Below, piece after piece: positions 18,001 to 24,000 of a stretch of DNA of 64,000 bases. The stretch covers positions 896,001 to 960,000 of the forward strand of contig CAWJRG010000009.1 of NCBI GenBank assembly GCA_963845185.1, written 5' to 3'. Position 1 is the first letter of the stretch. Every line of letters starts with the position of its first letter. The stretch comes from an uncultured bacterium. Its GTDB lineage: Bacteria; Oederibacteriota; PGYV01; CAWJRG01. The position numbers are program-made.

Positions 18001-21000
18001 TATTTGTCAACGTCGTTGTCCTTGTTACAGTAAAAGTCTGCGTTAGTGTCCGCGAATATACCGGCGTATTGGTCGGTGTGCCCGGGTATCCTTCCAGCCT
18101 TATATTGTCTATATCCACGGTAAAATTATCCGTGGAAGCCACGCTTGCGGTAAAAGCCAGGAAAGTAATCTGGGTTTGCCCCGCGTCAATCACAGCCGAA
18201 AGCGGTATCCTGACAGTTGACCATGTAGTGGTACTTAAAGTGCCTCCGCCCACAATATAAGCCGCAGGGTCTACATTTATTGCCCAGTTTGTATCCGCGG
18301 TCAGGTACATCTGGCCGACAGGGTTTGGGCTGGACGCATCCTCTTTCATGTTAAATGTCAGGTACAAATTTGTGCCTATATTTTTAGGGTTGTTAAGCGT
18401 CCACCAGAGCTGCTGCCAGTATCCCGCCACGTTTGTGTATGTAAGCAGCATCATGTTTCCCAGGTCGCCGCCTGTCACCTGCGTCATCGTGCCCGGAGCA
18501 GTATTATTCACTGTCCCGTCGCTTAGCGTGGCTCCTGCAGTGTCGCCGTCATAAATTATGGTTGCCACAAGCGCCGGCGTAACAGTAAATGTAGGAGTAA
18601 TTGTGTATGTTGCGCTCCGGGTGTAGGTCGGAGTCTGCGTCCACGGAGGCGTGATGGTTTTTGTCAATGTGAAGGTTGTTGTCTGCGTTATGGAAACCAC
18701 AGGCGTGTTCGTAGGCGTGGTGTTTGATTTTATAATGAAATGCATTGCCGAGTACGCGGGCATGTTGTAAGAAAAATAGTTGTTGTTTATCGCTACAGTC
18801 GACCTGGCTGTTATGGTATAGCTTGTCTGGTCAAAACCGTAAACCTGCATTGTGGTATATGTCTGCGAGCTGGTTATGGTTATGTTTGCCGGCTGCGCCG
18901 TATTATATTTATTGACTATTATCATGTGTATCGTGGACAGGTCGGAGCCGTTTATTGAGGCGTAAACCGATATTGTAGAAGTATCGGAATCTGCCTGTAT
19001 ATTCGTGTTGCCGAAAGTTGATTTTGCGCCGTCATAATTCCTGTACATTTTAAAAGCAGCCGCAGAATACCCGCCCTCATCTACAGGCCACAAAGTCGCA
19101 AGATATACTCCGTATTTCCCGCATATGCCCAGAAAGTCGGTGTCAGTCAGCCCTCCTGAAAACTCCCTGCCTGCTCCAAAATTCCACTCTGAAAAAGAAA
19201 TCTTTGTGCCCGGGAAATACTGATTAATGGACTGCTGTATTAAGGGAATAAGTGGCGTGTACTGCAGGAAATATGGATTAATCCAGCTATTTTCAGCGTA
19301 ACCGGTTTCCCATAATGTCCTTGTTGCGTTCATCCTGGCCACATCATTTGCCGCTGTCAAATAAGTTGAGCAACCATTATCCGTTACCCTGCATGTACCG
19401 TCAGTCGCTTCGGAATAATAATGAAAATCCAATACATCAATAGGCTTTTTCCCGGTTGCCTGATAGGACTGGTTCATCATGTAAAGATAATATGACACAA
19501 ACCAAATATAATTTGTATTTAACGCAGTAGTCCAGTCTGGCGCACCGTTTAAATTTATGTAGTCGCTCCACCCGAAAAATACTCCGCCGAAAATCATGCA
19601 ATATGGGTCCACGTTTTTTATTGCGCCGCCCAATGCAATTGAATCATTGACATATTCATTACATGTTACATGATTAGGGTGCAAATACGGATGCGTACCG
19701 TTCCATATGCCAGGCTCGTTGTCAAGGTCGTAAAATTTGACGCCTGTGGATGTCGAGGCATTGCCGAAAGTCTGCACGAGATACCACACCGATTCATCCA
19801 TGTAAACAGCGTCATCCGTCGTATTTGGCGGATAAGTAAAAGGGCTGCCCTTCGTGTAATATATCGGGTGCCATCTTGACGATGGCGCGGTCTGGGCAGC
19901 CGTCACATCCCCGTTCATATCAGCCGCTACATATCCTGCCATTGGTATTGTCACGAGCGACGCATAGCCTTTTGAATTATTAGTGCTTACGAAATACTGG
20001 TAAGTGGCGCCTGGAGTGCCCGCGCAGTTTGTGACAGGCGGGTTCGGCGGGCACATATATGAATCACTGCTGTCAGGTCCATAATCAGTCCCCGCGTTTG
20101 ACGCGTTGTTTTCCCAGTTATATCCTGTCAGCCTGTTCCCGCCCATACGCATGCAGGTAAAATCAGAGCTGTCGCCGAAACTGTCGTCATTCGTGCCGTA
20201 GATATACGGGCTTATCGGCGCCAGTCCCTGTGTTGTATTGATTGAAATGTTCGCTGAAAAAAGGCATATAGGCAGGATAAATAAAAAAAGGGCAAATTGA
20301 ATACGTTTAAATGATGTTTTCAAGCTTATCACCTAATCCGGATAGAATATCTTTAACATTAATCGTTAAATCAATAATATCATAGAATATTTCAGAAAGC
20401 AAGGTTTCTTCAGGTTGCCGAAAAGGTGCTTGATGATGTTTATTTTGTAAAGCTACGCTGCAACAAAATCCACGGGACTGCATGCCGTAAGTTTTTGTTC
20501 CACAAAAACAACGGTCTGCAGTATTACAGCACTCAAGTACCCGCTCAAGTCCGAGCTCTATCCTGACAAGCGGTACTTGATATTCGTTTACTTTGCCAAG
20601 CCGTCAACAGGTGCAGGCAAAGTATTACGAAATCATGTACCCGCTCAAGTCCAGGTTCTTTTTGGACAAGCGGTACTTGATATTCGTTTACTTTGCCAAG
20701 CCGTCAACAGGTGCAGGCAAAGTATTACGAAATCATGTACCCGCTCAAGTCCGAGCTCTATCCTGACAAGCGGTACTTGATATTCGTTTACTTTGCCAAG
20801 CCGTCAACAGGTGCAGGCAAAGTATTACGAAATCATGTACCCGCTCAAGTCCAGGTTCTTTTTGGACAAGCGGTACTTGATATTCGTTTACTTTGCCAAG
20901 CCGTCAACAGGTGCAGGCAAAGTATTACGAAATCATGTACCCGCTCAAGTCCAGGTTCTTTTTGGACAAGCGGTACTTGATATTCGTTTACTTTGCCAAG

Positions 21001-24000
21001 CCGTCAACAGGCGAAGGCAAAGTATTACGAAATCATGTACCCGCTCAAGTCCAGGTTCTTTTTGGACAAGCGGTACTTGATATTCGTTTACTTTGCCAAG
21101 CCGTCAACAGGCGAAGGCAAAGTATTACGAAATCATGTACCCGCTCAAGTCCAGGTTCTTTTTGGACAAGCGGTATTGCTTATTATCACATAAAATGCTT
21201 TTTAATAAAATGCCAGCCTTTTGTTAATATGTACTTCCCTGCCTTTGCGGCTGCCGTATTCGGCTCCTGTCCGGCTATGCCGCTGATCTCGGTATGTAAA
21301 GTTTCTAGTTTCTGGTCTCTTGTTTCTGGTTGTTCTTTTTCTAGAACCTTGAAACTAGAAACCAGAGACTTCTTCTTTTCTCCCACTTCGCACGTCGCAC
21401 CCAGCACGTTACACATTCTTTCAAACATCCCCGGCAAATCCGCCAGATACGGGTTCCCACTAGCCTGAGCCCAGCCAAAGGCCGCCTGTCCTGAGCCTCC
21501 ATCGCCCTGAGCTTGCCGAAGGGCCCATATGACTCCCGCCACCCCCAAAGCCGCCATAGCCGCCACGGGCTCGCCTGGTATTATAATATGAAACCCGCCC
21601 TTGAGCGACCTTTTTGCTATATATCGCCCAAATTGTGGATAATATGGGATTCCCGTAAATTGCCCCCTTACAGGCCCTCCCAATCCATGGTTTTTATGAG
21701 CTGCTCATAAATCTTCACCCCTAACCGCCGGATTTCTTACTTTTGGTAAGAATCGCCTCCTACAACGATTTCAACTAATAATTACAGGGATTTTTTTAAA
21801 TTACTGTCCAAATTCCGACATATCGCTACCCCGTTTACCAGATAACTAGACTTAAAAAATGTGGATAATACGGGATTCCCGTAAATTGCCTGCCTGCCCC
21901 TGGGCTTTTCCGGTCTTTACCAACCCTCCGACCCTCTAACCCTCCAGCCTTCCGCTTTTCCAGCCTCCCATGCCGCCTCCCAAAATGTGGATAAATTTGC
22001 TTCGCCAAGAATTGCCCCCAGACCCCTGCCTTTAGCTTTAACTAACCCTCTAACCCTCTGCTCTTCTGACCTCCTGCTGTTTCATTTTGAAACATACTTT
22101 AAAATCATTCCCCTTGAACTATATTGCCATCAGAGTCTTGGAAGCTATCCATGCCTATCGAGATGAGATCAAACACTGTCCCAATCCCGCAGAGCCCGCC
22201 GGTAGCAAGCCACAGCAAGCCCGTCCATACCTTGCCAACATAAAACCTGTGTATGCCTCCCAGCCCCACAAACCCAAGGCAGCAGAGTAATATAACCATA
22301 AATTTTGGTTTAGATGATATAGCCATACATACCTCCTGATATATTTACTGAAGCACTCAGCACGTCGCACTTGGCACGCCGCACGTCTTTTCTGTTGAAC
22401 CTTGCTCTCCTCACCTTAAACATTGAGCTTTGAACCTTGAACTTTGCCTTTACCCCTTGAGCCTTGAACTTTGAACCTTGAACTTTGCCTTTATCTATTG
22501 GTTTTTCATGCCATAGAAATTTCTTAATACGCTCCATCCCTTGATATCGTTTGTTTTGCCAAGCCGAAGGCGCCGGCAAAACATTACGGGATCAAGCACC
22601 CGTTCCAGTGCTGGCCTTATCAGCACAAGTGGTGCCGTAGCGCTATCCATCCCCGCCTCTACCGGCGGGTTTTTGCGGAGCGGGAGTAATAATGTTATTA
22701 CGAATAATATCAGGGCTGCTAATGCAATAATCACATACATCTTTCACTCCTTCATCCCTTTGCCATTTTGAAGCTAATTAAGCCGAAAACTCCACAACAA
22801 GCATAGTCCTGAGCTTGCCGAAGGGTAAGGTCTGTCCCCAGTCATTTTTATTATCACATGACGTGGATTGTTCGGGTTGAGACGAATTTTTGAGATTGCG
22901 ATTTTCATGCTAAAACCTCCCTTTAAATTTTCTATTAATTTTTTATTATTATAATTTTTTCATCTTCAGCCGGAGGCTCAAAAGCCTTGATTGTCATATC
23001 CAGAAGATTCTTATCTATTATCGAGCGGCTTTTGCCGGATTTGTTTTCCTCCCACCTTTCATATATCTTCGGCACAGGGACTTCGACATAAATAACAGCC
23101 GCATCAGCGCCGGATTCTCCGGCTATCCTGCGCAAATCATCCCTGCTTTGCCGTGTATGGTTTGTGGAATCGTATAAAACATTCAATGAATCTTCCAGTG
23201 CCATTCTTGACCTGGCTGACGCTATGCCAAAAATGCTTGCCCATGCTTTTTCGTCAGGAATCTTGTTTGAACTCCAGTCAAATCCATGCGCCTTAAAAAT
23301 CTCATCAATACTTACATACGCGCATTTGGTGCTTTTGAGAATCTTTTCGGCAATATATGTTTTGCCCGAATACGGCATCCCGCACAAAATAAAAAGCGTC
23401 TTTTGCCTGCTGTTTATTTCCCGTATGAGATTTTCAAGTGATTCATCCATATAATTTTCACCTTCACATTTTATTCAACAATCTTATCATTTCTTTAAAA
23501 TCAGGCAATATATGTTTTGCGCCGGCTTTTAAAAGGGCTTTCTTTTCCTTGCCGGAAGCAATTCCGATAAATTCCCATCCAAGGGCATCCGCAGCTTTTA
23601 CATCCCATATCCAGTCTCCCACATAAACAATCTTTTTAAACTTTTTTACCCGGGATTTTTTCATGGACTTATGAAGGGCAGACTTCATGATTATCCCGCG
23701 CATAAGCCCATCCTCGGCTGTAGCCAGCGGCATATTCCGGCAGTCAAGCCCGGCGCTTCTCAGCTTGTACTGCCCCGAAACACGCCAGTTTCCTGTTGCT
23801 ATAGCTGTGAACCAGTCAGGAGTATTTGATAACTTCTTCAGGCATTCTTTTGCGCCAATCATGCTTTCAAAAGGCTCTCTCCCGTATTCCCTGTCAAGCC
23901 ATAAAGCCATGCTCTTTTTAAACTCAGTTATATCCACGGGCATACATGAACGTCCCAGGTTTTTTTCAATGATTTCATTGAGTATGCCGGAATCCGTAGA

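Follow-up and report, generated by a model that had tools for sequence, protein, structure and literature searches.

What kind of element forms the tandem array of hairpins that lies between two minus-strand ORFs of this genome, and why do copies of the same hairpins stand directly in front of ribosome binding sites? The array was examined within the window, that is, the whole stretch of 64,000 nucleotides that was analysed, and its modules were followed through the genome and into relatives (Table 1). The first-pass annotation had described 6.5 tandem units of a two-hairpin repeat, A followed by B. The array proved real, with 6.6 units read on the minus strand, but the unit measured 100 nt rather than the ~115 nt given there. 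The units vary in their A-loop and B-loop variants, and two of them together gave a folding energy of -87 kcal/mol (z -7.3). No sigma-70-type promoter was found on the array strand, and the repeat unit contains none. As reported before, the array had no family in Rfam; the only hits were to microRNA models, on another hairpin and with scores far short of the gathering threshold. We read the array as a local amplification of the unit, probably through unequal recombination.

Table 1. Repeat copies and neighbouring features in the window (window positions)
Position	Strand	Feature	Evidence or detail
11360..11475	-	Single A+B copy	CM 99.8 bits; tail AAGGG, then unrelated sequence
14869..14907	-	Solo (partial) C module	
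17033..20332	-	Glycoside hydrolase family 44 (GH44) gene, downstream of array	Pfam PF12891, E 1.2e-58
20429..20532	-	Final array unit: B module with 5' arm split by another hairpin module, then degenerate tail	Sequence reading
20520..21175	-	Tandem array, 6.6 A+B units, period 100 nt, 95% matches	TRF, sequence, nhmmer and CM hits
21186..21683	-	ORF, 165 aa, upstream of array	Own gene calling; stop 10 nt before array
22548..22650	-	A+B copy within a ~530-nt segment found at two further places on the contig	
26586..26626	-	Solo A module	
34728..34789	+	Solo C module	
38842..39045	-	Mosaic cluster: A, inverted B-like module, small hairpin, truncated B 5' arm, C	
39333..39361	+	Consensus sigma-70-type promoter (TTGACA, 17 nt, TATAAT)	12/12 matches; 12 nt upstream of first A module
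39374..39690	+	Cluster A, A, B, A, B, a ~300-nt leader	
62625..62706	-	ribH start region, empty site without repeat	Promoter 62706-62678, 37-nt leader, AGGAGG 62640-62635, ATG 62627

The array itself does not abut a Shine-Dalgarno (SD) site. Sequence reading revealed no SD behind the final unit, and ~190 nt separate this unit from the start of the GH44 gene. Judged from the sequence, the true start of that gene is probably the TTG at 20323, behind AGGTGA at 20334-20329. A module similar to the one inserted in the final unit is present at another B copy elsewhere in the genome. On the upstream side, the 165-aa ORF had no family match and contains a long inverted repeat at 21293-21378; it is doubtful as a real gene.

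Iterated nhmmer searches recovered 149 A, 134 B and 57 C modules genome-wide, so that the abundant modular family claimed earlier (165, 153 and 54 copies) was recovered with somewhat different counts. A is about 41 nt and B about 60 nt long, and both are imperfect hairpins. They form 172 clusters, 68 of which have the exact order AB; nested modules and tandem arrays occur both here and in G014. Module C had been thought to be mostly nested in B, but a strict motif test placed both B arms beside C in 11/57 copies and at least one arm in 22/57. Since the genes came from our own crude dicodon caller (2859 genes), all start codons are predictions. Overlaps of more than 10 nt with these called genes were found for 6/149 A, 7/134 B and 0/57 C copies. 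Between co-directional genes, copies on the gene strand far outnumbered those on the opposite strand (A 125 vs 6, B 113 vs 10, C 51 vs 3), and the intergenic, gene-strand placement asserted before was thus confirmed. The orientation of the copies tracks genes rather than the direction of replication. Of the 15 B copies on the lagging strand, six stand directly before the SD and start of a gene on that strand, and one divergent region holds two opposed copies, each facing its own gene. The genes behind the copies are unrelated to one another. The array and about 150 dispersed relatives may be regarded as copies of one mosaic non-coding repeat made of A and B, with modules such as C nested or appended.

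The position of B relative to the SD site was strikingly regular. In total, 77/134 B copies are followed by an SD core and by a start codon that opens an ORF of 40 codons or more, and the distance from B to the start was 25 nt or less in 73/122. When measured from the end of a B model 49 nt long, GGAG begins 7 or 8 nt downstream in 72/88 copies, which agrees with the earlier claim that the foot of B abuts the SD. This genome, G001 and the metagenome relative L073 have a foot of ...ATC plus 1-4 A/T-rich bases, followed by GGAG. The start codon lies 5-9 nt from GGAG in 72/74 copies, as in other genes, and almost no copy is followed by a second, native SD in addition to that of the element. In the window, the C module of the mosaic cluster at 38842..39045 leads straight into AGGGAGG and the ATG of a minus-strand gene (37316-38851), and the last B of the plus-strand cluster leads into TAGGAGG and then ATG at 39691, where a lagging-strand ORF of 53 codons starts. 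No gene start was found behind the tail of the A+B copy at 11360..11475.

One possible reading is that the SD is the 3' end of the repeat, as in Neisseria REP2, each copy supplying the translation signal of the next gene and spreading via recombination at SD microhomology. The SD sites of the element-preceded genes would suit this: an SD core was present in 77/77 of them as against 55% of other genes, AGGAG or AGGGAG in 69/77 as against 27%, and CTAAGGAG in 22/77 as against 9/2427. The SD variant is also linked to the B subfamily, the AGGGAG type occurring in 0/15 copies of one subfamily, 8/15 of another and 3.9% of other genes. One B subfamily keeps the tail CAAGGGAGGC in 6/10 own-genome copies read, before unrelated genes, and the same tail recurs in L073. 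The subfamily-linked variant and the recurring CAAGGGAGGC fit an SD carried by the element, although 3' ends that differ between subfamilies (CTAA vs CAAG), when joined to a native GGAG, could also produce the link. A few copies (10 listed) carry an SD-like tail although no gene follows them, but the B copies without a gene behind (47 listed) end in ...ATC(W)AAG and mostly lack GGAG. Moreover, the bases after GGAG and the two bases before it have background composition, and the element-specific signal ends about 3 nt before GGAG.

The ribH gene offers one filled and one empty site. In L073, whose ribH shares 86% identity, an A+B unit lies between the homologous promoter and the SD, whereas the ribH of the window has no unit but its own AGGAGG at the same distance. 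The pair comes from diverged genomes, and 24 nt of the leader differ, so it does not represent a clean insertion. The presence of a native SD at the empty site argues against delivery of the SD by the repeat, and we consider such delivery unlikely.

The hairpins are conserved as structures. On an alignment of 42 diverse copies, 94.4% of the stem cells were paired, compared with 29-45% when the pairing was slid. In the same copies, double-sided changes numbered 140, whereas 500 shuffles averaged 45.8 and none of them reached 140, and the covarying stems of the first-pass annotation were thereby reproduced. The internal-loop bases (GTAA..., ...AAAC) are invariant, even across genera. These features, together with the placement of about 95% of the copies on the gene strand and the fixed SD register, are what would be seen if the transcribed hairpins were selected for a cis action on mRNA, for example by stopping 5' or 3' exonucleases where a cistron begins, by marking an intercistronic processing site or by shaping the surroundings of the SD; in that case selection on expression would preserve orientation and register. 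It also accords with such an action that 21/55 AB units fill an intercistronic gap, with the upstream stop at most 30 nt away, and that in six cases a perfect sigma-70 promoter precedes A by 12-35 nt, which would place A at the 5' end of the transcript. The promoters upstream of the repeat stand at variable distances of 2-37 nt, with no fixed register.

The kind of pairing, however, points elsewhere. One-sided (wobble) cells numbered only 11, against 140 double-sided and 59 non-standard cells in the 42 copies. Stem mismatches on the gene strand were A·C in 100 cases and G·U in 43, and the complementary strand was the more stable one in 49/67 AB units (Wilcoxon p 6e-7), both asymmetries being tallied across related copies, to which a mutational bias could contribute. 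The AB cores had a mean folding energy of -39 kcal/mol (n=67, units with C being outside this set), much weaker than the -63 to -76 kcal/mol stated previously. The mismatches and strand energies suggest DNA-type pairing, in which selection would act on folded DNA and not on folded RNA. In addition, the predicted accessibility of the SD in element genes was the same as in control genes (0.49 vs 0.46, p=0.54). With the SD core left outside the hairpin stems and no U-tract behind them, the hairpins work as neither thermometer nor terminator. That they precede unrelated genes also speaks against a cis action on mRNA. The mRNA-level role implied by the first-pass annotation gains no support from the mismatches, the strand energies or the SD accessibility, and its own caveat, that the pairing may serve DNA-level mobility rather than RNA, is better supported. 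The repeat as an RNA regulator is unproven; we give such a role a modest chance, well short of an even one.

The family had been described as lineage-specific and absent from 23 other genomes of the order. A covariance model, however, detected it in 11/23 of these genomes and in 0/75 genomes elsewhere in the phylum, with at least 92 matches in the own genome and at most 18 in any relative. The family is thus not private to this genome or its lineage. In two sister genera (g13 and g14), the repeat core has a different context: none of 18 loci has an SD core behind it, and in 17/18 an A-rich tract is followed by a hairpin of -10 kcal/mol or better. ORFs were read at one orthologous locus (three genomes) and the sequence after B alone at the other 15/18 loci. 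At the g13 locus with ORFs read, the repeat stands on the strand opposite to that of the flanking genes, directly behind the intrinsic terminator of a gene. These relatives weigh against a repeat that carries an SD as well as against an RNA leader.

The folded strand and the mosaic clusters raise the question of a transposase. The repeat could be a relic of a REP/BIME or IS200/IS605-derived (PATE) element, its hairpins once recognised by a Y1 HUH transposase (RAYT/TnpA) now gone from the genome. Imperfect palindromes with conserved bulges, BIME-like mosaics and the better folding of one DNA strand would suit this origin, and Y1_Tnp genes are common in the order (15/23 relatives, up to 8 per genome). 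However, Y1_Tnp (PF01797) gave no match in the own genome (99.4% complete), as noted before, despite by far the most copies. The same absence, together with zero matches to the TnpB-type PF07282 in the own genome, speaks against an IS200/IS605-derived PATE. Y1 presence does not track the repeat (7/11 genomes with it, 8/12 without), and no repeat was found beside the 4 Y1 genes of relatives examined. The alignment of 42 copies revealed no GTAG or CGTC head on either strand, and the better-folding strand would not be the lagging-strand template for co-oriented genes. Descent from such an element is thus quite improbable. The Y2_Tnp profile likewise had no match in the own genome, but it matched nowhere, control included. 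By eye, no integron attC core sites (R''/R', RYYYAAC / GTTRRRY) were seen in the copy alignment, and the ends of five multi-copy IS or intron families of the own genome were unlike those of the repeat. When the 5' flank was compared with the 3' linker, short direct repeats of at least 4 nt were found in 13/65 cases (permutation mean 6.1, p 0.002) and fell below 3 nt in 37/65. The excess of direct repeats favours mobility, yet as a signal it is weak; the searches for Y1_Tnp, Y2_Tnp and TnpB-type proteins yielded no mobilising enzyme, and the link of the SD variant to the B subfamily also counts against this reading.

We favour, at about even chances, a repeat that moves at the DNA level, lands preferentially at SD sites and is carried along in transcripts. 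In support of it we count the SD register, the end of the element-specific signal short of GGAG, the orientation by gene, the other context in g13/g14, the ribH pair, the copy numbers, the kind of pairing, the direct repeats and the nested and tandem modules. The repeat would belong to one bacterial order and, as a non-autonomous element that moves or recombines, would multiply through a DNA-level process and land in a fixed register beside short purine-rich motifs. The motif would be the 5' edge of the SD site in the own genome, G001 and L073, and in g13/g14 the A-tract before a hairpin, which at the single locus with known ORFs is an intrinsic terminator. Because of the landing site, copies in this genome would face the gene and become part of 5' leaders or intercistronic stretches, where translation must at the least tolerate them. 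A more specific proposal, which we regard as speculative and rather unlikely, is that a hairpin element without a transposase of its own uses the most abundant short motifs of a genome as landing pads, SD sites here and A-tracts before hairpins in the sister genera. Hairpin-stalled replication with template switching at AAG/AGGAGG microhomology might bring this about, or alternatively a single-strand recombinase acting on the bottom strand. If this were true, some 80 unrelated genes would share a natural 'standard leader', and one element would have been retargeted, lineage-specifically, from gene ends to gene starts.

Several known repeats resemble the present one in part. BOX of Streptococcus pneumoniae and ERIC/IRU of enterobacteria are structured intergenic repeats that are co-transcribed and present in about 100 or more copies, BOX being built of boxA, boxB and boxC modules. 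Likened by description alone, the present repeat shares their modular structure, intergenic position and high copy number; we know of no fixed SD register in BOX or ERIC. MITEs such as the Correia element are short and non-autonomous; relatives differ in which copies they have, and a copy can alter downstream expression. Unlike MITEs, the present unit showed no terminal inverted repeats, the IS ends of the own genome are unlike it by eye, and the signal of a target-site duplication is the weak one given above. A general description of MITEs and the Correia element is found in PMC3184786.

REP, BIME and REPIN sequences are described as high-copy imperfect palindromes in intergenic DNA that form mosaic clusters, are transcribed with their neighbours and show compensating stem changes (PMC3333891, PMC3116915, PMC3733652), and the REP palindrome is headed at one end by a conserved tetranucleotide, GTAG or CGTC (PMC3733652). 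The high copy number, the confinement to intergenic DNA, the mosaic clusters and the compensating stem changes are shared. As far as those accounts go, the present repeat differs in the absence of such a head and of a RAYT gene, in having two unlike modules in direct order instead of inverted copies of a single module, and in standing on the 5' side of genes in a fixed SD register rather than at 3' ends; its modules are also longer than typical REPs.

The closest likeness in position is Neisseria REP2, to which IR-A/IR-B of Borrelia plasmids are similar. According to Delihas (2011, PMC3184786), REP2 is a dispersed intergenic repeat of 120-150 bp with two internal stem-loops and without terminal inverted repeats. 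Its copies, about 26 in number, directly precede unrelated ORFs, adjoin or include the ribosome binding site and form part of the 5' UTR; it contains a promoter, ribosome binding site and ATG. The two stem-loops and the position directly upstream of unrelated ORFs are common to both. Compared with REP2 by that description, the present unit has its promoters at variable distances upstream instead of inside, and it carries no ATG because its sequence diverges at or just after GGAG. It is furthermore modular, has ~150 copies, occurs also between cistrons and in tandem arrays, and in relatives places its core beside hairpins, a terminator at one locus. Set beside these systems, the repeat looks like an undescribed small mobile element of ~100 bases with two conserved hairpins, settled at ~150 places.

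The repeat family is genuine and striking. In the genome under study (3.50 Mb on 11 contigs), iterated nhmmer searches run to convergence recovered 149 copies of hairpin module A, 134 of hairpin module B and 57 of the nested or appended module C, with no position matched on both strands. These independent counts are slightly below those of the first-pass annotation and give the same picture of an abundant modular family. Overlaps of more than 10 nt with the 2859 genes called by our own dicodon caller (88.6% coding) were limited to 6 copies of A and 7 of B, with none of C. In all, 172 clusters were counted, AB being the commonest order (68 clusters) and mosaics being many. 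Between co-directional genes, the coding strand of the flanking genes was strongly preferred to the opposite strand (A, 125 versus 6; B, 113 versus 10; C, 51 versus 3). The gene-strand bias of this genome is extreme, 2554 of 2848 intergenic regions being co-directional, and in each 50-kb bin roughly 75-100% of the genes are in line with GC skew. Since genes track GC skew, strand alone cannot part the direction of genes from that of replication. Where the two can be told apart, the few cases speak for an orientation that goes with the gene: 6 of the 15 lagging-strand B copies lead into the Shine-Dalgarno (SD) site, start codon and ORF of a lagging-strand gene, and in one divergent region two opposed B copies each face their own gene.

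The association with ribosome-binding sites is real in this lineage. The 3' end of module B is followed by 1-4 A/T-rich bases and then by the SD core GGAG, which lies 7 or 8 nt from the end of the B model in 72 of 88 copies. The spacing from GGAG to the start codon is 5-9 nt in 72 of 74 cases and resembles that of ordinary genes. Of the 134 B copies, 77 are followed by an SD core and by a start codon that opens a reading frame of 40 codons or more. The 5' side is less uniform: the preceding stop codon lies within 30 nt of 21 of 55 simple AB units and more than 100 nt away from 22 of them, and a perfect TTGACA-N16/17-TATAAT promoter stands 12-35 nt before A at six loci. No sigma-70-type promoter with 16-18 nt spacing was found within the unit. 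In a sub-family of B (e.g. C9 671.5 kb, C5 35.4 kb and C1 208.4 kb), a common tail rich in TTTTCAAT repeats replaces the SD site; this tail may be a further module.

The placement before ribosome-binding sites holds for the dispersed copies and not for the tandem array in the window. Read on the minus strand, each array unit consists of hairpin A and then hairpin B, and in the last unit the B module is broken up by another hairpin module. The array begins 10 nt past the stop codon of the upstream ORF and is separated from the probable TTG start of the glycoside hydrolase family 44 (GH44) gene by ~190 repeat-free nt, so the array itself is not in contact with a ribosome-binding site. It is a local amplification of the repeat family. 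In the neighbourhood of the GH44 gene at L073, a locus from a metagenome relative, synteny with the window was limited to GH44 itself, and therefore no orthologous comparison is available for the array site. The upstream ORF contains a near-perfect long inverted repeat, for which Rfam gave sub-threshold matches to microRNA models only, and this unsupported ORF is perhaps no gene. A short tandem repeat lies between the array and the B copy at 22548. A segment of ~530 nt, comprising an A+B unit and its flanks, occurs three times on the contig, indicating that some repeat copies spread inside larger duplications.

Features of the repeat family and its surroundings (window positions unless a contig is named)
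Feature	Position	Strand	Basis or remark
Tandem array, A+B units	20520-21175	minus	Tandem Repeats Finder: 6.6 head-to-tail copies, 100-nt unit, 95% matches
GH44 gene flanking the array	17033-20332	minus	PF12891, E 1.2e-58
Upstream ORF, 165 codons	21186-21683	minus	ORF reading and family search; without family match
Long inverted repeat within the upstream ORF	21293-21378		arms ~20 nt
Tandem repeat of 7/14 nt, ACCTTGA-like	22413-22487		about 5-11 copies
Repeated segment, ~530 nt	22470-23000; C9 527.9-528.3 kb; C9 532.1-532.7 kb	minus (window copy)	89-95% identity
Perfect TTGACA/TATAAT promoter before A	39333-39361		one of six such loci
ribH	start 62627		86% identical to L073 ribH
Reverse-transcriptase element sites	C9 ~700.7, 811.6, 845.5 kb; C10 ~383.8, 832.1 kb; C11 ~62.0 kb; C1 ~269.9 kb		outside the window

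The repeat had been reported to be absent from the rest of the order, a blank that is attributable to the limits of BLAST. A covariance model of the A+B unit, applied to 23 further genomes from the order, all outside the family and genus of the genome under study, matched in 11 at E <=0.001. At E <=1e-5 the matches came down to 10 of these 23, and none of the 75 genomes from the phylum's other orders was matched. The highest copy number in the relatives was 18, versus at least 92 in the genome under study, where 92 candidates were scored; the relatives G014 and G023 rank next in copy number. At locus L062, the relative G014 likewise carries A+B units in tandem, three or more of them, repeating about every 98 nt. 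A module A pattern scanned over the contig collection was loose (at least 108 matching stretches, 80 loci tabulated) and is uninformative on the distribution outside the phylum; among the matches listed, the covariance model left a single locus, L220, as a true copy, and its score exactly equals that of the matches in the relative G020. Rfam searches of the relatives' loci detected a tRNA beside one copy and otherwise nothing.

The placement of the unit differs among these relatives. An SD site and ATG follow it directly in genome G001 and at L073, whose hydrolase has 70% identity. At the loci of the genera g13 and g14, the SD core was found in 0 of 18, and in 17 of 18 the sequence after B has an A-rich tract with a hairpin (-10 kcal/mol or better) immediately past it. 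Gene context in these two genera was read at one locus (three genomes), where the unit runs antisense to the genes on either side, directly after the upstream gene's terminator; at the other loci the reading is that of the sequence after B. A copy common to four g10 and g14 genomes is followed in each by one shared conserved sequence, which by eye would be the end of an opposed gene. A single RNA function cannot account for both the SD and the terminator or hairpin placements. A DNA-level preference for landing at purine-rich tracts could account for both.

In 42 copies chosen for diversity, 94.4% of the cells pair, double-sided changes number 140 versus 45.8 in shuffles (the observed value was reached in 0 of 500), and pairing falls to 29-45% when the partner is slid. 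The B stem compensates freely (one example pair is GC in 16, UA in 14 and CG in 9 copies), and no variation is seen in the lower stem of A or in the A-rich internal loop of B, other genera included. A covarying stem combined with invariant parts of loop and stem is the pattern expected for a structure read by a protein, and by itself it does not tell folded RNA from folded DNA. An mRNA-level role, which the first-pass annotation had entertained, gained nothing from three tests that might have backed it. First, when stem positions were counted and loop positions left out, isolated mismatches on the gene strand were of the A·C type in 100 cases versus 43 of the G·U type, and the alignment contains 11 one-sided (wobble) cells versus 59 non-standard cells. 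Second, RNA folding gave the complementary strand greater stability in 49 of 67 AB units, with a mean difference of 2.6 kcal/mol. Third, the SD accessibility computed as partition-function unpaired probability was 0.49 for 75 element genes versus 0.46 for 250 controls (p 0.54), and this prediction backs neither insulation nor sequestration of the SD site by the element. All of these results are pointers and not proof, because the copies are related and because the purine richness of the leading strand (GC skew 0.10, AT skew 0.14) may bias mutation. The SD association finds its best explanation in the landing site of the element and not in a demonstrated RNA function.

A filled and an empty site could be compared at ribH. 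At L073 the unit sits between the ribH promoter and its SD site. The window ribH has a homologous promoter and an equally distant AGGAGG of its own, with a 24 nt A/T-rich leader at the place of the unit, the divergence of the pair being too large for the exact junction to be read. Thus, relatives differ by gain or loss of the element, and the SD site is present also in its absence. Three other element-preceded genes of relatives have no orthologue in the genome under study at E 1e-5, and one DNA run (X1, share 0.06) at 80% likeness returned short diverged contig pieces with noisy joints and no usable empty site.

Evidence on whether the SD site belongs to the unit is mixed. In favour, an SD site is present in 77 of 77 element genes versus 55% of the others, and the AGGGAG type accounts for 20 of 77 versus 3.9% elsewhere and is tied to B subfamily (0 of 15 versus 8 of 15). 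One subfamily carries an identical ten-base SD tail before unrelated genes, both in the genome under study and at L073. Against it, gene-less copies mostly end in ...ATC(W)AAG with no GGAG, and the bases past GGAG as well as the two bases before it match the genomic background. Subfamily-specific ends fused to a native GGAG would produce an equal pattern of SD type and subfamily. In 13 of 65 units, versus 6.1 in permutations, the 5' flank shares with the 3' linker a direct repeat of at least 4 nt; most units are without one.

As for candidate movers, no match of the Y1_Tnp or TnpB type was found in the genome under study, nor any Y2_Tnp match, the latter being a weak blank since the Y2 control also matched nowhere. 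Y1_Tnp-type genes, in frames of about 320-345 codons and at most 8 per genome, are present in 15 of the 23 other genomes of the order, including G001, G013, G014, G019 and G021. They are equally frequent in genomes with the repeat (7 of 11) and without it (8 of 12), and four Y1 gene neighbourhoods of relatives had no repeat beside the gene. The active-looking elements of the genome under study give 37 DDE_Tnp_1 matches, 7 IS110-type matches and 6 identical reverse-transcriptase copies, and their ends, compared by eye, showed no likeness to those of the repeat. The six reverse-transcriptase copies, which have a group II intron-like 5' end, and a seventh such 5' end are each inserted one base past an ATG, and each insertion is preceded by a near-constant sequence of SD site, spacer and start codon. 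With it, the genome has a second mobile element homing to translation starts. A hairpin-repeat tail stands directly before two of the seven sites.

To our knowledge, the spread of dispersed hairpin repeats (REP, BIME, BOX, REP2) and their effect on neighbours are unsettled for most of them. The present family offers sharp handles: more than half of its B copies stand in one register with a ribosome-binding site, the same core occurs in sister genera beside hairpins with no ribosome site, and behind a terminator where the context was read, and the genome richest in copies is without the class of enzyme to which such repeats are commonly ascribed. A genuine landing preference would point to a mechanism that recognises purine tracts of SD type in the DNA, and would mean that about 80 unrelated genes have in common a structured leader of ~100 nt, a natural experiment in the 5'-UTR structure tolerated by translation. 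If instead the RNA reading is true, the family would make up a large group of cis-acting leaders that has gone undescribed, from a phylum without a cultured model.

Rfam contains no family matching the hairpin repeat, and the repeat failed the defining tests for membership of REP/RAYT, PATE and MITE. No description of it was found in the literature, including the main text, supplements aside, of the Goldbacteria paper (PMC7031533). The nearest described elements, as presented in Delihas 2011 (PMC3184786), are the REP2 repeats of Neisseria and the IR elements of Borrelia: each has two stem-loops and no terminal inverted repeats, and is found directly before unrelated genes together with their ribosome-binding site. 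In contrast to REP2 and IR as described there, the present family carries neither a promoter nor an ATG, differs in copy number, in its modular nested build and in its tandem arrays, and is placed differently in sister genera.
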